Source of the DNA: an uncultured Candidatus Saccharibacteria bacterium
Lineage (GTDB): Bacteria; Patescibacteriota; Minisyncoccia; Phycocordibacterales; CAIZIN01
Direction of reading: 5' to 3'
Assembly: GCA_964462115.1 (NCBI GenBank)
Contig: CAYWWA010000002.1
Span: forward strand, 6,560-70,559
DNA: 64,000 nucleotides
Part shown: piece by piece, positions 1,404 through 60,325 of the stretch
How the letters are laid out: each line of letters opens with the position of its first letter
Position numbering within the stretch: the first letter of the stretch is position 1
Position numbers and translations under genes: made by a program
The notes under the pieces: model-generated
The model's database searches: none
The model's input: only the letters and a program-made list of their open reading frames with translations
What the model was told of the DNA's origin: nothing

Positions 1404-1619
1404 TTATTTTTTTCCTAGCAATCGCTCAAGCTGGCTTTTGACCTCCAGCTCGTTATGACGTGCTGAGTCGGGTAACATTACCCGCTTGCCGTCACCATCC
1501 AAATGAGTGATGGCCCAGGTTCCGACCTGGGCATCGTGGAGAGAGCAATACCTGAAGGCTGTATCTAGCCTGTCAGAATCAACCCTCTCAAGTTTCAGAT
1601 CACTTCTGTTTGTTTTCAT
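1404..1619 (-). CDS. Hypothetical small protein (71 aa), GC-rich, SD-led
   Basis: Internal Met preceded by AAGGAGG 7 nt upstream; local GC well above background; product MKTNRSDLKLERVDSDRLDTAFRYCSLHDAQVGTWAITHLDGDGKRVMLPDSARHNELEVKSQLERLLGKK has no recognised family. Confidence 0.5.
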   Translation of the reverse strand: MKTNRSDLKLERVDSDRLDTAFRYCSLHDAQVGTWAITHLDGDGKRVMLPDSARHNELEVKSQLERLLGKK

Positions 1620-1723
1620 CTTTACTCCTCCTTGAGTAATGTACAAAAAATCCTACACGTTTTTTTGGAACAAGAACAGTAATTCATGGGAGCTTATTTC
1701 AGTCACTAAAGACTTCCCACATC

Positions 1724-1732
1724 TTACCATTA
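1724..1732 (-). promoter_or_regulatory. Extended -10 (TGGTATAAT) on minus strand about 100 nt upstream of the small GC-rich ORF
   Basis: Reverse complement of ccattatacca gives TGGTATAATGG. Confidence 0.35.
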
Positions 1733-1868
1733 TACCATATTTATTTTTTGGATAAACATTTTTTATCTGATGCCGTTAAAAAAACTTATTAAATAAGGCT
1801 TATTGCGAAATAGAAAAAATTGTCGATTAAAAGCGACAAAAAATACACTTATAATTTTCTCCATTTTA

Positions 1869-10308: not shown

Positions 10309-11142
10309 ATGCTTGAAAAAATATATCAAACTGTGGTGATTAATCTTGATAAGGATACTGATCGGATTTTGTTTATGCGACAGCAGTTTGAGCAGCAGGG
10401 GATTAGTTTTGAACGAATTAAAGGGGTGGACGGTCGTCATTATCTACAACTAAACCCACCCGGCACTGTGGGGGCAGAATATGATGAGAGTAAAGCTATT
10501 TTAAAATCTAGATTTGGCACAGCTTTAAGACCTGGAGTTTTGGGTTGTGCACTGGCTCATCAGCAGGCCTATCGGGAGTTTTTAACTAATCCCAGATATC
10601 AGAATGTAAAATTTTTAGTTATCTTTGAAGATGACGTGGTAATAAAAAATAATTTTAAGACAATTTTAGAAGCAGAAATTCAAAAAAATCTTAATCGCGC
10701 CGAAACAAAGCGGTGGAACTGTTTACAGTTTGATTATCCCCAATATAATTTTAATCTTTTTAGTCATTATAGGATGCAATTTAATCTTTTTAAAAAATTT
10801 TCTAAAAATAAATTTAGACGTTTACCTTATTTATTTTTTGCTCCTATTGCAATTTTATTGGAGCAATTACGTGGTTTACTTTTAGGAAAATTTTTTGCTG
10901 GTTCCTATCCTGTTTTTATGAGGGTGCCATCTAACTTAGGTTGCTACGTAATAGATAAAAAATTAGCTAAAAAATTGATAGAAGAAAATAGTCCCATCAT
11001 TAATCTGGCTGATGTCAATACCGATGTGGTTTATCAAAAATACAAAAAAACCACCACACCACTCATCTTTTTTCAATATTTTCCCAGAATTTCATATCAA
11101 GATCATCATCAGTTTTTGTCTTCTTCTAGTCAAATAGGCTAA
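10309..11142 (+). CDS. Glycosyltransferase family 25 (LPS/LOS-type)
   Basis: N-terminus VVINLDKDTDRILFMRQQFEQQGISFERIKGVDG is GT25-like; 4-nt gap from upstream gene. Confidence 0.6.
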   Translation: MLEKIYQTVVINLDKDTDRILFMRQQFEQQGISFERIKGVDGRHYLQLNPPGTVGAEYDESKAILKSRFGTALRPGVLGCALAHQQAYREFLTNPRYQNVKFLVIFEDDVVIKNNFKTILEAEIQKNLNRAETKRWNCLQFDYPQYNFNLFSHYRMQFNLFKKFSKNKFRRLPYLFFAPIAILLEQLRGLLLGKFFAGSYPVFMRVPSNLGCYVIDKKLAKKLIEENSPIINLADVNTDVVYQKYKKTTTPLIFFQYFPRISYQDHHQFLSSSSQIG

Positions 11143-14227: not shown

Positions 14228-14791
14228 ATGGATAGAATTAGAAATTTTTCAATTATCGCTCATATTGATCATGGAAAATCAACTTTGGCTGATAGAATGT
14301 TGGAAATTACCCATACTGTAGAAGCGCGCAAAATGCACGATCGGGTTTTAGATGACATGGAGTTAGAACAAGAGCGAGGAATCACTATTAAAATGCGACC
14401 GGTGCGAATGGAGTTTCTGAGTAAACGTGATCAACAAAAATATATTCTTAATTTGATTGATACTCCCGGACACATAGATTTTTATTATGAAGTATCGCGC
14501 GCGCTCAAGGCGGTGGAGGGAAGTGTGCTTTTAGTAGATGCAACTCAGGGGGTTCAAGCTCAAACTTTAACCACCTTACAAATGGCTCGTGATGGTGGTC
14601 TAACTATTATCCCTGTGATCACCAAAATCGATTCTCCGATTGCCAACGTGGAAGAAACTAAATTAGAAATTATGCAGTTGCTTAATTGTGAAGAGAAAGA
14701 AATTATTGCCGTCTCCGGTAAAACTGGTGAAAATGTAGAATTTTTATTGGAGGAAATCTGCACCCGAGTCCCAGCTCCCAAAAAAATTTAA
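14228..14791 (+). CDS. LepA/EF4-like translational GTPase, G-domain only (187 aa)
   Basis: IRNFSIIAHIDHGKSTLADRMLE (G1), DTPGH (G3), TKID (G4); ends where LepA domain II would begin; stop overlaps next start (TAATG). Confidence 0.7.
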   Translation: MDRIRNFSIIAHIDHGKSTLADRMLEITHTVEARKMHDRVLDDMELEQERGITIKMRPVRMEFLSKRDQQKYILNLIDTPGHIDFYYEVSRALKAVEGSVLLVDATQGVQAQTLTTLQMARDGGLTIIPVITKIDSPIANVEETKLEIMQLLNCEEKEIIAVSGKTGENVEFLLEEICTRVPAPKKI

Positions 14792-16332
14792 TGAAAAGTA
14801 TTGTCGCTAAAAAAATAAAATATAGCTTGTGGAACGAAATTGTAGGAGAAAAAGAAATTTTGAAAGAGGTAAGTTTTAAGTGCGATCAAAACGAACGGCT
14901 TTGTATTTTTGGTGAAAATGGCGCTGGTAAATCTACTTTGTTGAAAATTTTAGACGCAAGGATTGGCGATGGCGAGTCTGAAATTTTAAGTGGCAGCATT
15001 GAAAAAACTGGTCATGTGCGGACTTTTTACGTGGGCCAAGAATTTGATCAAAATTTTTTACAAAAAAATATTGGAGCATACGTGGAGGTGCTGGCAGGTA
15101 AAAGTTTATATAAAAAAGTTTTTGATTATGGGCGATTGTTGGGTTTTGATTTAGAAAAAAATTCGGAAAAACTTTGCAGCGAGCTTTCAGGTGGACAACA
15201 AAAGATTTTAGTGCTATCAGTGGCGTTTGCGATTTGTCCAGATTTCTTATTTTTAGATGAACCAGAAAACCATTTAGACATTGTCTCCAGAACTGAGTTA
15301 ATGGGAATGATGGCGGATTTTTCGGGAGGAATCATTTTTGTTTCGCATGATCGACTTTTGATTGATTCGGTTGTGACAAAAATTGGAGAGTTAGTTGGTG
15401 GTGTCATGTATATATCGGAAGGTAATTATGATGACTATATTGCCAAGAAAACCGAACGACTAGAAACAGCTCAAGATTCGTATGATAAAATCTCCAAAAG
15501 AATTAAAACTTTACAAGCGATGTTGGTGATTTTAAAAAAGAAAGCTATACGGAGTAATGGACAATCAGCTTATCACCGTGCTCTAAATGAATTGGAGGAG
15601 TTACGTAGAGAGCATGGTCAAGTAGAACGGCCAAGAGATAAAAAAACTAAAATTAATTTATCCTTAGATAATAATAATTTTCATCACGGTCGCCGTCTGT
15701 GGCAGATGAAAAACGGTGGTTTTAAATTTGAAAATATGAAGCATCGGATTTTTGGTGAGACAGATTTAGAAATTCGCTCTGGTGACAGAATTGTCCTCCT
15801 TGGCAGGAACGGAAAAGGGAAAACTACTTTCTTGAGGTGTTTAACTGGTGAAACTCAAATGCTAAGTGGTGAATCTATTTGGGCAGATAAGACTGCTTGG
15901 TCATATTTTGACCAGCACTGTGCCTTTGCTGCTGATCAAACCCCAATCAAAATTGTGCAAGAGAAATTGGCTTGCGGTGAAACAGACGCTAAAGCGGCGC
16001 TGGGTATGATGAAGTTTGATGACAAAAAAATGATTACTAAGGTTGGCCAACTGTCGGGTGGTGAACGAATGCGAATTCGGTTTGCGTTAGCTTTTGGTAA
16101 GAAACCAGATTTAATCATTTTAGACGAACCGACCAACCATATTGACGAAATCACTTGGGAGATTTTAGTAGCCGCTTTAGATGAAACCAAGAGCGCTGTT
16201 TTGTTAGTGACTCATGATTATGAGTTTATTGAAGAGTTTGAACCAAGCAAGTATTGGACTTTTTCTACTGACAACAAAGTGCTAGAGCGACATAAAACTT
16301 TAGATGAGCTTTTAGATGAAATGAGGGGTTAA
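14791..16332 (+). CDS. ABC-F family ATPase (two NBDs, no TMD)
   Basis: GENGAGKST / LSGGQQKILVLSVAF / FLFLDEPENHLD and GRNGKGKTT / LSGGERMRIRFALAF / LIILDEPTNHID with an inter-domain linker. Confidence 0.8.
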   Translation: MKSIVAKKIKYSLWNEIVGEKEILKEVSFKCDQNERLCIFGENGAGKSTLLKILDARIGDGESEILSGSIEKTGHVRTFYVGQEFDQNFLQKNIGAYVEVLAGKSLYKKVFDYGRLLGFDLEKNSEKLCSELSGGQQKILVLSVAFAICPDFLFLDEPENHLDIVSRTELMGMMADFSGGIIFVSHDRLLIDSVVTKIGELVGGVMYISEGNYDDYIAKKTERLETAQDSYDKISKRIKTLQAMLVILKKKAIRSNGQSAYHRALNELEELRREHGQVERPRDKKTKINLSLDNNNFHHGRRLWQMKNGGFKFENMKHRIFGETDLEIRSGDRIVLLGRNGKGKTTFLRCLTGETQMLSGESIWADKTAWSYFDQHCAFAADQTPIKIVQEKLACGETDAKAALGMMKFDDKKMITKVGQLSGGERMRIRFALAFGKKPDLIILDEPTNHIDEITWEILVAALDETKSAVLLVTHDYEFIEEFEPSKYWTFSTDNKVLERHKTLDELLDEMRG

Positions 16333-43985: not shown

Positions 43986-44384
43986 TTACCAAATGTTAAA
44001 TAATACTTCTCCACCGACCTTTTGATTTTTTGCATCAGTACCGGTTAAGATACCTTTGGGAGTTGTAAGAACTAATAAACCATAACCATTTTTTACTGGA
44101 ACAATCTCAGCGGCTTTGGTATAAACTCGTCTAGAATTTTTAGAAAGTCGTTTGACGTTAGTAATTTTTGGTTCTTTATTTTCACCATAAAGTAATTCTA
44201 CTTCAATGGATTTTAATCCACCCTTACGAGCAGATTCTTTTACTTTTCCGACATAACCTTCTTTGGAAAGAAGATCTAAAATGTCGCGTTTCATCTTAGA
44301 AAAAGTTACTGTCGCAGAACTTAAACCAACTGCGTTAGAGTTTTTAAGATGAATAATAAGATTTGAAATTGGATCGTTTACCAT
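43986..44384 (-). CDS. rpsH: 30S ribosomal protein S8
   Basis: [20 protein letters not shown]. Confidence 0.85.
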
Positions 44385-44563
44385 GATGATTTTTTGATGC
44401 CCGGAAGCAAACCTTCGTTAGCTGCTTCACGGAAACACACACGGCACAAACCGAAGTCCCGCATAAATCCTCGTTTGCGACCACAACGAGAACATCTTCG
44501 CACTAAACGTGACGAAAATTTCGGCTTTCGGCTTGCACGAACCTTAACTGATGTTTTTGCCAT
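44378..44563 (-). CDS. rpsN: 30S ribosomal protein S14, Zn-ribbon type (61 aa)
   Basis: [23 protein letters not shown] is the CxxC...CxxC S14-Z signature. Confidence 0.85.
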
Positions 44564-44709
44564 TAGTTTTTAGATTGTGTTTGACAGTCTCCTGTCATTA
44601 ACTTAATAATAAACCCAATTTTTGGGTCTTAACAATTTAACATAATTTAATAAAAAAATCAAGGAAAAATTTGTTTTTTTAGAGTTTTTATGCTATATTT
44701 TATCGCGCC

Positions 44710-44786
44710 GTCGGCATAGCTCAGTTAGTTAGAGCGCGGGACTCATAAGCCCGAGGTCAGTAGTGCAATTCTACTTGCCGACACCA
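44710..44786 (+). tRNA. Elongator tRNA with CAT anticodon (Met, or Ile2 after lysidine modification); atypical D/T loops; CCA encoded
   Basis: Acceptor GTCGGCA/TGCCGAC, C11:G24, anticodon loop CTCATAA, discriminator A plus CCA; D-loop lacks GG, T-loop is TGCAATT; preceded by TGCTATATT 8 nt upstream. Confidence 0.6.
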
Positions 44787-44837
44787 GAAAAAAAGAAGCA
44801 CACACGGTTTTAAAACCATGAGTGCTCTTTGGGGCTA

Positions 44838-44945
44838 CTAGCGCCCTTGTCCGCGGTTCTGCGACCGCTTCTCATAGCCCTTCGGCTTTTTGCCAAAAGG
44901 CCGGCGGTCACGTCGCCGCTGGCGGCTCTTGCCTGTTTTTGCCAT
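44838..44945 (-). CDS. 35-aa Arg/Lys-rich peptide (MAKTGKSRQRRRDRRPFGKKPKGYEKRSQNRGQGR); possible ribosome-associated micro-protein
   Basis: Strong SD GGGAGGTGA 8 nt upstream of the ATG; consensus promoter just upstream; GC-rich; the 67-aa ORF-track frame includes promoter sequence. Confidence 0.5.
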   Translation of the reverse strand: MAKTGKSRQRRRDRRPFGKKPKGYEKRSQNRGQGR

Positions 44946-44972
44946 TTTACTTTTCACCTCCCTTCTCTTAGT

Positions 44973-45001
44973 ATTATAGCATATTTGAGTTTTTTTGTCA
45001 A
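44973..45001 (-). promoter_or_regulatory. Consensus sigma70 promoter TTGACA-N17-TGcTATAAT on minus strand driving the 35-aa peptide gene
   Basis: Reverse complement gives gCTTGACAaaaaaactcaaataTGCTATAATactaagagaagGGAGGtgaaaagtaaaATG. Confidence 0.55.
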
Positions 45002-45041: not shown

Positions 45042-47910
45042 CTACCTGTCTCCACAATAAGCACTATAAAATTCTTCAGCTTTATCTACTCCATCAACAT
45101 AAATTTCCGTTGGCTCCTTACGAAAACCAATGGTGTTAATATTTAAATTATTGATATAAACTGTCCATAAATTATTCAGGGACAGACTGGTTTTATCACA
45201 ATAAAATTTAAGCTTGGATGATTCGCTTAAACAGTCTTGAAATTTACTATCTGTAATATTACTCCAAAGAGTTGAAGCTTGGTAGCTAGCAATTAAATCA
45301 GCTGGCACACAAATTTTTAAGACGTTAGCATCAGTTAGGTTAATAGAGTTATAAGTGGAAGAATAAGGTGTGAGAATGGTTGGACTGTGAAGGTAAGCAG
45401 TAACTTTAGGCGAAGCGGAAGCACCAGCTAATCCAAAAACATTATACATTTTTGCATTTAACATCAACTGAGAACCAGACCAACCCATAAACCAGTCTAT
45501 CTCATTTAATCGACTATTACCATAGTGGAGATAGTGCATAAAATAAGTTCCGATAGAACTTGGTGACCAATCTTTAAGGGGGGTTAAATCTATTGACCGT
45601 TTTAAATAGGTATTATAATTATGAGTATAAGCGAGAAAATAAGTTCCAATACTGCTTGGGCGCCAGTTTTTTAACGGGCTTAAATCTATTACTTCACAAA
45701 CATTGTCTCCAGGATTAGTATAACAGTTATAGCTGTGGGTATAAGCTAAAAAAGAATTAGGTATGCTAGGTATATTCCAATCAGATATTGGTGACAAATC
45801 AATCGGCTTGGTTAGATATGTATTATAATAATGCGTGTAAGCTAAAAAATAAGTAGAAATGCTTGTTGGATTCCAATCATTCATAAAAGATAAATCTAAT
45901 GGTTCAGTCGCTCCGCTATAACCAAAAGTGTAATAGAAAAAATAGCTACTGCCAATATTTGACGGTCTCCAACCTGATAAAACCTGATAACTAGGAACGG
46001 TAAACGATGACGAATTTCCAGCGTAATAAAAAGTGTAATTATTAAAATAATAACCTATGGTGGTAATTCCAGAGATATCACCACCAGCCACTAAGTTAGC
46101 TTCGGTTAAATATCGACAACCGTAAAATAGATGAGACATAAAATAATTTCCAGTGCTGACTCCACTCACAGGTAAAAAACCATAAACCGGTAATTGTTCT
46201 ACTGAAATAACTTTATTTTTATTAGCCTGTAGGTTGGATAAAGTAATTGCCGAGTGAAAACCAAAAGCCGATAGCCAACCGCGAGACGGAGAGGCTGTAG
46301 TTGGATAAATTATTATTGTATGCTGTCCAGTGGATAAACCTGTCAGGTTTATTCCGGTATTAGCCGCTCCAGTTCCAGTATAACGGGCCGCTCCCCCACC
46401 ATCAATTTGGACTAGCCAATCATAGGCGCCACCCAATACCCCTCCGTTATAACCACCGGTTGGGATTGAGAAAGTGCCGTCGGTGGTGCTGACGGTGAAC
46501 TTTAGAGCAAATGGTTCCAACTGTATTAAATCCGCAGCAGAAAAATAATAAACCCTAAAAGTGCCAGTTTGAATAGCGGTATTGCCGATTATATCTTCTA
46601 CCGTCAAAGAATAATTATAGACCACACCATTGTTATCTCCATCGGTGGCACCCAGTAAATTAGTAATATAAATACTATCATTTGGATTAGCCGTAACATT
46701 ATAATTTAACGAAGAGGTTCCATAAGCAAAAGTCATTGTAGCCATCAAGGCACTGGTCTCAACCCGCAAAGACGCTGGTAAACTTTCCTCAAATGAGACT
46801 GAAGTAATTTTAATAGGAGGAATATAGTTTTCATAATATCCATCCCAATATAAGTAAGGATAACCAGCATTATTATTTTCTCCCGCGCAATCTATTTTCC
46901 AAATAGTATTAGCCGAATCAGCGGTGCAAGAAATATCCCAACTTGAAAAAGTTTGTGATGTCTTCATTTGCGCAGTGGTCTTCGGTTGAGTATTACCAGT
47001 AGTGTTAGTATAGCCAGAAAGATTTTGATCATAAAAAGTATTAGTGGTAGTAAACCCCCCATAAGCCTCACCAGTAAAACCACCACAAAGGCCGCCAGCA
47101 CAGGTTACCTGACCAGCAGAATAACAATTAGTGCAAGAACCACCGGTGGAACCCTGTCCAAAACCAGAAGTCCGTCCGTCGAAAGCATAATCCTCAAAAA
47201 CTGAAGAACGAGAATAGGAGTTTGATACTGGCGCATTAATTAATCCAGTAAAACCGCCGTTTTGGCCCCGACGGGCGATTACCTCGTTAAAACTAAACGA
47301 TTCAGAAACAGTATTACTGTTGTAAGCAGTGTGAGCAATTAGACCGGCTACTTGGTTTCCTTCATTGTTGCTGCTGTCTCTATTGCCGGTGATCGTTCCA
47401 CCATTACATCCCACCCTGGTCACTGTAGAATTATTTAACTGCCCCACCAAGCAAGCCACATAACCTATACCAGTGCTATTTGTGTTATACAGTCTTAAAT
47501 TTGAGATGGTGGCACCATTAGTTACACCAAAAAGCGCCTGAAAACCAGAGGTGGCTTGTGTGCCAGTTGGTCTATATAGTGTCAAATTATAAATATTAAA
47601 ATAGTTTCCATTTAGTTGACCAGAAAAAGCTGTAGTGACATTTCCAATCGGCACAAAGCCGGCTCCACTGTTCCAATTTACCGTATCAGAACAATCAACA
47701 TCTTGGGTTAAAATATAATTTAAACCCAAACCTGTAGTATTGATATTTTGTAACTGGGAACAGGTGGAAATTTCATACCAACCATCACTGTTCGAATCTG
47801 TAGGCAAATCCCCAGAATCGTAAGCTGCCAAAATCAAATTGCTTGATAGCAGAAACAAAAAAACCAAAGCGAAAAGGAATTTAATTGGTTTTAGCTTGCC
47901 ACCCATAATC
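45042..47910 (-). CDS. Large secreted/surface protein (~956 aa): GLUG-like beta-helix N-region, C-terminal DUF285/BspA-like repeats
   Basis: Signal peptide; FSGQLNGNYFNIYNLTLYR resembles the F.G.fdGnGhtI.NL beta-helix start motif; C-terminal ~32-aa repeats IDLSPLKNWRPSSIGTYFLAYTHNYNTYL; start taken after the minus-strand TGCTATAAT at 47928-47936. Confidence 0.55.
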
Positions 47911-47927
47911 ATAAAACTATGCATGTT

Positions 47928-47984: not shown

Positions 47985-49844
47985 TTAATTATTCTTTTTC
48001 TTTCTTTTCAGCATGCGCTCCAGATATTGACCAGTGTAAGATCCAGTTTTTTTCCAAGTGTCCGCCACTGTCTCTGGTGTGCCTTTAGCGATCAATTTTC
48101 CTCCTCCGATTCCTCCCTCAGGACCAATGTCAATTATATAGTCAGCACATTTAAGAAAATCTAAGTTGTGTTCAATCACCACCACCGAGTTTCCTTTATC
48201 CACCAATTTTTGCAGAATCTCAATTAGCTTTTTCACATCTTCATAATGCAAACCAACTGTGGGCTCATCTAAAAGATAAATAGTTTTTTGTAAATTCTGA
48301 CGGTATAATTCAGCAGAGATTTTGACTCGCTGTGCTTCTCCACCTGAAAGTTCAGTGGCGGGTTGACCTAATTTAATATAACCCAAACCCACATCTTGTA
48401 AGGTAATTAAACGATCGTGGATGGCTGGTATGTCTTGAAAAAAATCCACCGCCTCATCTATCGTCATTGCTAAAACATCGTGAATATTTTTCTTCTTGTA
48501 TTTTATTTCCAAAGTTTCTTTGGTAAACCTTTTACCATCACAAATATCGCATCTAACAAAGACACTCGGTAAAAACGACATCTCCACCTCAATCATCCCA
48601 TTGCCTTCACAGGCTTCACATCTACCGCCCGGCACGTTAAAAGAAAATCTTCCTGGTCCCCAACCGCGAACTTTAGCCTCATCGGCGTTAGCAAATAAAT
48701 CACGAATATGAGTTAAGGCTCCCACATATGATACTGGATTACTACGGGGGGTGCGTCCGATTGGCGACTGATCAATTAAAATTGTTCGTCCTAAATATCC
48801 CGCACCTTCAAAATTACTACAATTAAAAAATTTAGCGCTGCGGTGTTTTTTTTCTAACTGTCCTTGTAAATTTTTATGAATAATTTCATACATTAAAGAT
48901 GACTTTCCACTGCCCGAAACTCCAGTAATACAAACCAATTTTGAAAGTGGAATTTCTAAGTTTAAGTTTTTAATGTTAAAAATATTACCGCCAGTAATTT
49001 TTATTTTCCCCCGATCTTGAGTCCGTCGGTCTGGAATATCAATCTGATCCTCTCCACGTAAATAGGCCAAAGTTTTAGATCCGCTGTCATTTTTTTTGGC
49101 ATCTAATAATTGATCCACCCAACCAGAGACCACTACTTCACCACCATGCACTCCAGCTTTGGGCCCGACATCAACAATATAATCTGAAGCAAAAATAGTA
49201 TCCTCGTCATGTTCTACCACCACAATTGTATTACCCATATCACGCAAATCGGTAATAGTTTTGATTAACTTATCGTTGTCTCGCTGATGCAAACCAATCG
49301 TTGGTTCATCCAAAACATACAAAGCTCCGACTAAACCACTGCCCAGCTGTGAAGCTAGGCGGATTCGCTGAGTTTCGCCACCAGATAGAGTTGTCGCTCG
49401 TCTATCCAGAGAAAGATATTCAATCCCTACGTTAGTCATAAATTTGAGTCGTTCTACAATTTCTTTGATGGGGATTTTGGCAATCTCCATTTCTTGTTCA
49501 GAAAGTTGCTGAACTAAGTCAGTAAAAAATTTTTGGCTATCGGTAATAGTTTTTTCGGTCAGCTTCATAATATTCATTTTATCCTTGCTGTCGCCTAAAA
49601 AAATACTTAAAGCTTCTGGTCGCAATCTTTGGCCGTGACAAACTGAACATTCTTCATTCACAAAGAATTCTCTAGTGCCTAAGCCGTTACATTCAGGACA
49701 GGCTCCATAGGGTGAATTAAAAGAAAAAAGTCTCGGCTCAATTTCAGGAAAAGAAAACCCATCATAAGGACACATGAATTTTGCCGAAATCATTTTGTAG
49801 TCGTAGTTTATTTTTTTATTTTTAGAGTCGGGCCGAGTTGACAT
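47985..49844 (-). CDS. uvrA: UvrA C-terminal fragment (619 aa: Zn-finger insertion region, end of ABC module I, complete ABC module II)
   Basis: CPYDGFSFPEIEPRLFSFNSPYGACPECNGLG, LSGGETQRIRLASQLGSGLVGALYVLDEPTIGLH, second Walker [29 protein letters not shown]; resumes where the fragment at 59408-60325 stops. Confidence 0.8.
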   Translation of the reverse strand: MSTRPDSKNKKINYDYKMISAKFMCPYDGFSFPEIEPRLFSFNSPYGACPECNGLGTREFFVNEECSVCHGQRLRPEALSIFLGDSKDKMNIMKLTEKTITDSQKFFTDLVQQLSEQEMEIAKIPIKEIVERLKFMTNVGIEYLSLDRRATTLSGGETQRIRLASQLGSGLVGALYVLDEPTIGLHQRDNDKLIKTITDLRDMGNTIVVVEHDEDTIFASDYIVDVGPKAGVHGGEVVVSGWVDQLLDAKKNDSGSKTLAYLRGEDQIDIPDRRTQDRGKIKITGGNIFNIKNLNLEIPLSKLVCITGVSGSGKSSLMYEIIHKNLQGQLEKKHRSAKFFNCSNFEGAGYLGRTILIDQSPIGRTPRSNPVSYVGALTHIRDLFANADEAKVRGWGPGRFSFNVPGGRCEACEGNGMIEVEMSFLPSVFVRCDICDGKRFTKETLEIKYKKKNIHDVLAMTIDEAVDFFQDIPAIHDRLITLQDVGLGYIKLGQPATELSGGEAQRVKISAELYRQNLQKTIYLLDEPTVGLHYEDVKKLIEILQKLVDKGNSVVVIEHNLDFLKCADYIIDIGPEGGIGGGKLIAKGTPETVADTWKKTGSYTGQYLERMLKRKKKNN

Positions 49845-59407: not shown

Positions 59408-60325
59408 TTATTCACTTTTAGGAATCCCCAACTGGATTAAACCATCACTTTCTTCCAAACATTTTTCAATCGCTTCAGATAATCTTTCCTTAATTCCTTC
59501 TGCCTTGTAGTTGTTGGCCATCTTTTTAATTTCAGAAATATAAAATTCATCCACCAAAACCGCGATATCGTGTTTTTTGTTTTTAGCTAAGTCAATCCGT
59601 TCACGAAGTTTTTGTTCTGCTCCATCAATCAAAACGTCTTCATAGCCTTTGCTCAATAAATCATACAGCAGTTGGTAATATTCACCCTTACGCCCAACCA
59701 CTAGCGGGGCGTAAAGTTTAATTTTTAAATCATTAACTTCCACCCCAAAGACTTTTTTATCAATTTTACTTGTATCAATCTCTCGCACTAATTTAATGAT
59801 GGTTTGTAAAATTTCTTCACGAGATAGTTTTTTAATTTCACGACCACATTCCAAACAGTGTGGTTTACCAATTCGAGCGTATAAAACTCGTAGGTAGTCA
59901 TAAATTTCAGTGATGGTAGCAACAGTCGAACGCGGATTGTTGGAGTGAGTTTTTTGATCAATTGAAATTGCAGGAGATAAACCAGTAATTTCATCAACAT
60001 CTGGTTTTTGCATTTGATGTAAAAAACGACGAGCATAAGAAGATAAACTTTCCATATATCGCCTCTGCCCTTCCGCAAAAATAGTATCGAAAGCCAAAGA
60101 TGATTTTCCTGAACCAGACAAGCCGGTGATAGCTACAATTTTATTTCGTGGCATTTCCACCGTGATATTTTTCAGATTATGAGTCCTGGCTCCTTTCACT
60201 ACGATTTTATCATCTACTTCTCGTCCAGCCACTGTTTTTTTGCTAGATTTTATTTTTTTTTCACTCTCAGCATGAAAAAGCCGACTAGAACCGCTTGCAG
60301 CCTTATCTTGGACTTTCTTTGACAT
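59408..60325 (-). CDS. uvrA: UvrA N-terminal fragment (305 aa: first Walker A, UvrB-binding/insertion region)
   Basis: [60 protein letters not shown]; ends at the point where the 47985-49844 ORF resumes; TGaTATACT 9 nt upstream of ATG. Confidence 0.8.

Follow-up and report, generated by a model that had tools for sequence, protein, structure and literature searches.

A 35-codon short open reading frame (sORF) lies on the minus strand of the stretch of contig CAYWWA010000002.1 that was analyzed here (64,000 nucleotides, hereafter the window), next to a tRNA-Met gene and the ribosomal protein S14 operon. We propose, with a probability of about 0.6, that this sORF is a real, lineage-restricted and strongly expressed tiny gene, whose product may be a disordered, polycationic peptide that binds nucleic acid and is conserved in composition. 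This proposal is built on sequence comparison. From the anatomy of the unit, its conservation in a sister genome (contig L081, the only close relative in public data, with S8 86% and S14 98% identical) and the charge carried specifically by its reading frame, we infer transcription, translation and a binding partner. The elements of the unit and its immediate neighbours are as follows.

44996..45001, minus strand: -35 hexamer TTGACA, read from the sequence and found by a promoter scan
44973..44981, minus strand: extended -10 box TGcTATAAT, separated from the -35 hexamer by a 17-nt spacer
44954..44962, minus strand: Shine-Dalgarno (SD) motif GGGAGGTGA, within a purine-rich 5' untranslated region of about 20 nt
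44838..44945, minus strand: sORF MAKTGKSRQRRRDRRPFGKKPKGYEKRSQNRGQGR, 35 codons plus TAG (ATG at 44945, TAG at 44840-44838)
44835..44837, minus strand: second in-frame TAG, read from the sequence, giving a TAG TAG tandem stop
44853..44919, minus strand: imperfect GC-rich hairpin within the ORF, -36 kcal/mol, unique in the window
44788..44830, minus strand: intrinsic terminator, a hairpin of -17.9 kcal/mol followed by CUUCUUUUUUU, abutting the 3' end of the convergent tRNA
44710..44786, plus strand: convergent tRNA-Met(CAU) with the unusual T-loop GUGCAAUUC, a positional anchor common to L081 and the lysine-rich sORF loci described below
44378..44650, minus strand: S14 gene with its own promoter and leader, first of the S14-S8-L6-L18-S5-L15-SecY operon

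All the features described in the original prediction, namely a TTGACA-N17-TGcTATAAT promoter, an SD motif, an ATG and a basic ORF, were found on the minus strand, together with the neighbours it had named, the tRNA at 44710-44786 on the plus strand and then the genes from S14 to SecY on the minus strand. The promoter is the sole 12/12 consensus promoter with a TG extension within 19 kb (36-55 kb). The distance between the -10 box and the SD motif, which had been put at about 20 nt, was measured as 10 nt, with the ATG 27 nt past the box. The SD core GGAGGTGA is a perfect 8-nt complement of the canonical 16S 3' tail, and neither the SD nor the ATG is base-paired when the fold of the window transcript is predicted. 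The peptide has K or R at 15 of its 35 residues, as the predicted Arg/Lys-rich product should, with a pI of 12, a net charge of +13 and almost no acidic or hydrophobic residues. A 67-amino acid frame listed at this place, with its start upstream of the promoter, had rightly been called spurious. Two elements had been overlooked, the intrinsic terminator (about 44830-44788) and the -36 kcal/mol hairpin inside the ORF.

Taken together, these elements would form a monocistronic unit, transcribed independently over about 175 nt from a strong sigma-70 promoter and made up of a short, purine-rich leader containing the SD, the 35-codon ORF, the tandem stop and the terminator. Its translation product would be a small, intrinsically disordered polycationic peptide with a pI of about 12.

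Start signals and frame-specific charge in two genomes

The L081 contig is syntenic with the window. Starting from the end of uvrA, its order is TTGCAT-N17-TGCTATAAT, AAGGAGG, 7 nt, ATG, ORF, TAG, a hairpin with a T-run, the convergent tRNA-Met and S14. The -10 region ATATGCTATAAT is identical in the window and L081, and the L081 -35 hexamer, TTGCAT, stands at the position of TTGACA in the window. The L081 sORF has 31 codons (MGSPRNRGGNGRHHSKTAISRYHRRPTKRRK), and its SD AAGGAGGT lies 7 nt ahead of the ATG. Read from the sequences, the SDs of the window (GGAGGUGA) and L081 (AAGGAGGU) extend the core in opposite directions, and each could pair without a mismatch with 8 nt of the canonical 16S tail; the distance from GGAGG to ATG is 11 nt in the window and 7 nt in L081. 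In both genomes the stop codon stands a few nucleotides before the terminator, and the L081 terminator, a hairpin with a T-run, occupies the same place with a sequence unrelated to that of the window. Start signals, a frame of 31-35 codons and a stop before the terminator are kept in both genomes (one orthologue), and the SD-ATG-ORF frame pointed out in the original prediction is thereby conserved in the sole available relative.

The body of the unit presents a different picture. With blastn, only the promoter aligned between the window and L081, and the global DNA alignment of the two bodies gave P = 0.44. Over the same evolutionary distance, the genes on either side keep an identity of 68-98% at the protein level and 70-92% at the DNA level (the ribosomal proteins S14, S8, L6, L18, S5 and L15 are 68-98% identical), and the S14 leader is 71% identical over 107 nt. 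Judged from these sequences, the sORF evolves far faster than the neighbouring ribosomal genes. The sORF of L081 has a GC content at third codon positions (GC3) of about 0.43 by hand count, and the orthologues are too diverged for a ratio of nonsynonymous to synonymous substitutions (dN/dS). When the RNA was folded without the terminators, z was -2.9 for the window and -0.2 for L081, and the long hairpin of the window has no counterpart in L081. What has been kept is the set of expression signals and the type of ORF, not a particular sequence or structure, which argues against a classical structured non-coding RNA (ncRNA) as well as against a core ribosomal protein.

Since alignment-based tests were impossible, the charge of the SD-defined frame was assessed against dinucleotide shuffles. 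In the window the net charge of this frame is +13, compared with +7 and +1 in the other two frames (P = 0.017), and in L081 it is +11, compared with +3 and +1 (P = 0.0018), so that in either genome no other frame is as basic as the SD-defined one. Hydrophobic residues are depleted in the same frame (P = 0.019 in the window and 0.012 in L081). Frame-specific charge in two orthologues that cannot be aligned is predicted by selection on a translated low-complexity peptide and not by an ncRNA. Tests of this kind can make tiny genes that are conserved in composition, not in sequence, recognisable where alignment fails.

The start signals of the sORF were further compared with those of other genes, over the 64 kb of the window and 10 kb of L081. 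An SD-like 4-mer is missing upstream of 44 of the 50 other window genes, and the longest match elsewhere is a 5-mer, compared with the 8-mer of the sORF, which means that within 64 kb a classic ribosome-binding site precedes no gene but the sORF. The motif GGAGGT occurs in the window at chance level (18 copies observed, 14.2 expected), and all the other copies are intragenic. No SD precedes any of the 11 listed neighbour genes of L081. A -10 box ending 4-9 nt before the ATG, often TG-extended and a signature of leaderless transcripts, was present in 12/50 genes, none of which has a -35-like hexamer (0/12). The claim that the sORF is an outlier in its expression architecture is therefore well founded, whereas the accompanying claim that most genes here are leaderless is overstated. 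Gene starts in the window look SD-independent in general, those of internal ribosomal-operon genes included.

If the sORF is a peptide gene, selection would act on its expression signals and on the charge and composition of the peptide, not on the exact sequence; the sequence would turn over fast, while the architecture and the frame-specific basicity persist. The peptide would act by electrostatic binding to nucleic acid, possibly to rRNA or the ribosome, to tRNA or to DNA. Its SD would pair with the canonical 16S anti-SD, and the other genes would be translated without SD pairing, from leaderless mRNAs or A-rich leaders. Searches for the 16S gene in the window and in all fetched loci, and for prfB in the window, returned nothing; solely from the two SD variants, we infer that the anti-SD is retained and used here.

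Composition, folding and rival explanations

Several results weigh against a peptide gene. As the original prediction had pointed out, the body is GC-rich, with 53-59% GC where the window as a whole has about 36%, and the codon usage of the window copy is very atypical, with a GC3 of 0.69 compared with 0.19-0.39 in 38 window genes. Because none of 20,000 back-translations of the peptide with the codon usage of the genome reached this GC3, the GC-richness must be imposed at the nucleotide level and does not come from the Arg and Gly content. Most of the GC and GC3 anomaly lies in the -36 kcal/mol hairpin inside the ORF (44853-44919), which indicates either a nucleotide-level constraint or a recent change; this hairpin and the extreme GC3 of the window copy are unaccounted for by the peptide model. 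The open frame is not significant either, because the body contains only 9% T: it was kept in 34% of shuffles (P = 0.34), another frame is open as well, and the L081 frame gave P = 0.51 (T content of 9-12% in the two genomes). ORF length was accordingly dropped as coding evidence. The peptides of the two orthologues could not be significantly aligned (local alignment, P = 0.62), and the sole hint of alignment is a borderline local DNA match (P = 0.05), in frame in both, of AKTGKSRQRR with SKTAISRYHRR. Furthermore, the unit is carried by two genomes only, and no homologue appeared in 5.8 billion protein clusters, 1.84 billion representative proteins or metagenome scans. Finally, SD pairing is otherwise ignored by this genome, and the anti-SD motif was detected in only 48% of Parcubacteria (Tsurumaki et al., PMC9297842).

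Much of this evidence would suit the main rival explanation, which we consider unlikely: a non-coding small RNA (sRNA) of about 175 nt, GC-rich and U-poor for stability in an AT-rich cell, whose single-stranded 5' GGAGGU would pair with the anti-SD or another CCUCC target as a decoy or regulator, the ORF being incidental. A promoter and a terminator of its own and a length usual for sRNAs speak for this reading, and so does a GC content that stands out as an island, as in the tRNA next to it. In the window copy the fold is strong (z -4.3 over the whole transcript, -2.9 without the terminator), GC3 and the T content at third codon positions are far from the codon usage of the genome, and T-poverty is enough to explain the open frame. 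An sRNA would likewise fit a body that is unconstrained between the orthologues while the 5' motif is kept, and an SD that the other genes of the genome do not use. From the window alone a structured RNA was in fact likelier than a peptide, and it was the L081 comparison that reversed the ranking. A structured ncRNA was also what the original prediction had named as evidence to the contrary; the strong fold of the window (z -2.9) is not conserved in L081 (z -0.2). In addition, an ATG at functional spacing (7-11 nt past GGAGG) is kept in both genomes, and in each orthologue it is specifically this frame that is basic (P = 0.017 and 0.0018 for charge) and poor in hydrophobic residues, which an sRNA does not predict.

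No Rfam 15 family reached its gathering threshold in 44790-45000, and what matched at E <= 10 did so by chance (11-18 bits, with thresholds of 65-114), none of it credibly; the L081 unit had no Rfam match, and ARAGORN found no transfer-messenger RNA. Signal recognition particle RNA, 6S RNA and other known RNA families were rejected on these results and on the fold, which is not kept in L081. A repeated palindrome of the repetitive extragenic palindromic type was rejected as the origin of the internal hairpin, which is unique in the window.

That the unit is functionless or very young, with a strong promoter and a terminator flanking a tRNA and an ORF present by chance, has in our view a slim chance of being right. 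It would agree with an orphan found in two genomes, with a body that cannot be aligned and with a junction between L5 and S14 that is variable in the clade (inserted ORFs in the loci L082 and L084, a tRNA here). However, promoter, SD, ATG, ORF and terminator are all kept at a distance where the ribosomal protein genes are 70-92% identical in DNA, and the frame-specific charge bias is found in both copies.

A slimmer chance still attaches to a secreted or delivered polycation directed at a host (cell-penetrating, antimicrobial or protamine-like) by an episymbiotic cell of the candidate phyla radiation (CPR), the turnover reflecting an arms race. The very fast divergence relative to all neighbours, the Arg-rich, Tat-like composition (SRQRRRDRRP), the strong expression signals and the lineage restriction could be read in this way. 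The peptide, however, has no signal peptide, no export or processing gene is adjacent, the sORF is located among translation genes, and nothing links it to any host, so that composition is the sole argument.

Least probable of all is an Arg-codon leader-peptide attenuator, in which translation of the sORF would govern the terminator and hence read-through into the S14-S8-L6 operon. The short ORF has six Arg in eight codons (RQRRRDRR), this run supplies the long hairpin with its 5' arm and the terminator follows; judged by eye, CUCAUGG, from the 5' arm of the terminator, could be an alternative partner of CUAUGAG in the internal loop of the hairpin, and a ribosomal operon lies downstream on the same strand. 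Read-through would nevertheless have to cross an antisense tRNA gene, the alternative-hairpin architecture is not present in L081, and a boost of ribosomal-protein synthesis by Arg limitation makes no physiological sense. The S14 promoter is conserved in all relatives, those without the sORF included, and an attenuator of the S14 operon was rejected on account of this promoter: the operon is independent of read-through from the sORF unit.

Distribution, lysine-rich units and neighbouring genes

Judged by the relatives of its S14 and S8, the genome belongs to Patescibacteria/Parcubacteria (Paceibacteria-like). The unit was absent upstream of S14 in 80 more distant S14-anchored genome loci, among which only one has a tRNA upstream of S14, and also from 11 loci of closer S8 relatives (L082-L092; 65-73% identity) and from L113. 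In the closer S8 relatives the L5-S14 junction is empty or holds unrelated ORFs. A metagenome scan anchored on the tRNA gave 20 loci and no further orthologue, and a scan of viral contigs found no such unit.

In 6 of the 20 tRNA-anchored loci, which belong to other Patescibacteria, a different conserved unit of similar design lies beside the same tRNA-Met, with an ORF rich in lysine (poly-Lys unit).

L105, 8720-8965, plus strand: poly-Lys unit
L095, about 10320-10565, minus strand: poly-Lys unit
L097, about 1568-1813, minus strand: poly-Lys unit
L100, about 955, minus strand: poly-Lys unit
L111, 1622-1850, plus strand: poly-Lys unit
L112, 648-875, minus strand: poly-Lys unit

The 5' part of this unit consists of a GTAGAAAAT box that resembles a promoter, a hairpin that covaries and has a CCAAAA loop, and GAGG(G)AGA about 9 nt before the ATG. 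The ORF of 22-27 amino acids (MAKKRKVAKKKAAPKRKAKKRTAKKRI, MAKKKKKATKKKKGGSKKKKRA or MAAKKKKKVVKKKKSGSKKKRA) is followed by one or two terminator hairpins. Intergenic DNA of about 63 kb contained only eight SD-led ATG sORFs of 18-50 amino acids, and the four with the most basic products are poly-Lys units. The unit had no Pfam, NCBIfam, PDB or Rfam match, and may represent an undescribed family of tiny proteins. Some SDs of 5-7 nt occur in the lineages that carry it, which are thus less SD-free than the window genome, and the generality that the only SD-led gene is a tiny basic ORF was for this reason not established there. The sequences of the Arg-rich and Lys-rich units cannot be aligned, and any homology between them is conjectural. 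The recurrence of tiny polycationic MAK... ORFs beside this tRNA in Patescibacteria makes a translated peptide more plausible.

Both sORF peptides were searched against Pfam-A and NCBIfam and, with phmmer, against 177,635 distinct PDB sequences, solved ribosomes included; no family and no sequence matched at E <= 10. Against 1.84 billion representative proteins, phmmer returned one low-complexity match and no credible relative. The 67-amino acid ORF, used as a query, found nothing in 5.8 billion protein clusters or, back-translated, in metagenome contigs, and exact look-ups of the peptide, the window S8 and the sequence P0001 had no match. A blastp-short comparison with small ribosomal-protein sequences gave low-complexity matches only; bS21 was not detected by Pfam, nor was there a meaningful blastp match to E. 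coli bS21. The listed L081 gene calls omit even the 61-amino acid S14 gene, and for this reason the negative results from protein databases carry limited weight. As far as sequence and profile comparisons reach, the sORF peptide is not bTHX, bL34, bS22, bL36 or bS21. The likeness to bTHX, bL34 or bS22 suggested in the original prediction was consequently not borne out, the two orthologous peptides being unalignable as well; what remains of that interpretation is a likely gene for a tiny basic protein, outside the known ribosomal-protein families. No similarity to phages or plasmids was found, and such an origin was rejected. Our search of the literature found no prior description of such peptides in CPR bacteria.

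On the minus strand downstream of the sORF follow S14, S8, L6, L18, S5, L15, SecY and GltX. S14 starts its own transcription unit with a TTGACA-N17-GATAAT promoter and a short hairpin (44564-44709, minus strand), conserved even where L5 lies directly upstream, and the promoter is conserved in relatives without the sORF. A second hairpin of the S14 leader differs in both arms between the window and L081 (TGACAGGAGACTGTCA and TGACGAGACTTCGTCA, respectively). The junction between L5 and S14 holds an ORF of 145 amino acids in L082, one of 546 amino acids in L084, and the tRNA-Met and the sORF in the window. The tRNA-Met(CAU) (44710-44786, plus strand) has a non-canonical T-arm and T-loop, GUAGUGCAAUUCUAC, where the usual type is GGUUCGAAUCC; the exact arm is kept in 20 metagenome contigs. 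This tRNA could be an elongator tRNA-Met or a tRNA-Ile2(CAU).

Upstream of the sORF lie a 960-amino acid protein without a Pfam match and the C-terminal part of UvrA. The 960-amino acid protein (45042-47924, minus strand), encoded between uvrA and the sORF, contains internal repeats (DLSPLKNWRPSSIGTYFLAYTHNYNTYL) and is absent from the syntenic L081 locus, which points to a lineage-specific insertion or loss. The uvrA gene is seemingly split into 47985-49844 and 59408-60325 (both minus strand). Its 619-amino acid ORF is 77% identical to the C-terminal two-thirds of the intact 895-amino acid UvrA of L081, and the UvrA interaction domain is found in a 305-amino acid ORF at a distance of about 9.5 kb, with gidB, a 2145-amino acid alpha-2-macroglobulin-like gene and a class A penicillin-binding protein in between. 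The split could be due to rearrangement, insertion or misassembly.

Elsewhere in the window, an L10 leader (RF00557, 46.7 bits) precedes L10-L7/L12 (17366-18467, plus strand). The genes of uL11 and uL1 are missing from their usual place before L10, where a VTT-domain membrane protein is encoded. This gap is suggestive of membership of the uL1-lacking subgroup of Parcubacteria, in which the anti-SD is often undetected (PMC9297842). At 14228-16332 (plus strand), a 187-amino acid ORF with an EF-Tu-type GTP-binding domain only ends where a 513-amino acid ABC-F-type ATPase ORF begins (14791), and may be a truncated or fused translation GTPase.

Comparison with known systems

If the gene is real, it enlarges a repertoire that is almost unexplored and escapes gene callers, the small proteins of CPR bacteria, and it would offer a concrete, testable case of a single SD-led gene in an SD-independent genome, with a bearing on anti-SD use in Parcubacteria. 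The small ribosomal proteins bTHX, bS22, bL34 and bL36 resemble its product in size (26-46 amino acids), in a pI above 11, in strong expression signals and in their location near translation genes. The sORF peptide, however, has no sequence or profile similarity to them and lacks the Cys motif of bL36, and, unlike ribosomal proteins, its orthologues are unalignable (P = 0.62) where the neighbours are 68-98% identical.

Leader-peptide attenuators of the trpL/hisL type have a short ORF enriched in one amino acid, then hairpins and a terminator. The sORF differs from them in having no dependent downstream gene, an antisense tRNA in between and a hairpin design that is unconserved. Dual-function sRNAs with tiny peptides, such as SR1/SR1P in Bacillus, RNAIII/delta-haemolysin and SgrS/SgrT, are alike in several features: the size of the transcript (about 175 nt here), a promoter and a terminator that belong to it alone, the strong internal structure of the window copy and the tiny ORF. 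In contrast to such RNAs, the sORF unit has no conserved structure, no conserved seed beyond the SD, no known target and no Rfam family. The poly-Lys unit is similar in being a stand-alone unit beside the same tRNA-Met, with an SD-like motif, an N-terminal MAK, a polycationic ORF and terminator hairpins, and its copies in L111 and L112 converge with tRNAs, as the window unit does. It is rich in Lys and AT, whereas the window unit is rich in Arg and GC, and its covarying 5' hairpin does not occur in the window unit.

The closest functional parallel is rpsU, the gene of bS21, which in Flavobacterium johnsoniae and other Flavobacteriales is a single strong-SD gene in an SD-blind lineage: bS21, bS18 and bS6 sequester the anti-SD, so that ribosomes ignore SDs, and rpsU is autoregulated via the availability of the anti-SD (PMC9976891, PMC13000453, PMC7797042). 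As with rpsU, a small basic product is encoded here by the one gene with an extended SD where others have none, and Parcubacteria often lack bS21 (PMC9297842), so that there would be a place for an analogue. The sORF peptide differs in being not homologous to bS21, about half its length and poorly conserved, and for it ribosome binding and autoregulation are hypothetical. By analogy, it might be a ribosome-associated peptide that occupies or masks the 16S 3' tail, and SD/anti-SD pairing might persist for its mRNA alone. The sORF would then be translated with preference by ribosomes that are free of the peptide, which would give an autoregulatory loop like that of rpsU in Bacteroidia with an unrelated, fast-evolving peptide, and the poly-Lys sORFs beside the same tRNA would be functional counterparts. 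We see a small chance for this masking function, and the rapid turnover of the peptide argues against a precise structural role. Should the gene prove real, a circuit that matches bS21/rpsU autoregulation in Bacteroidia by convergence could come to light.

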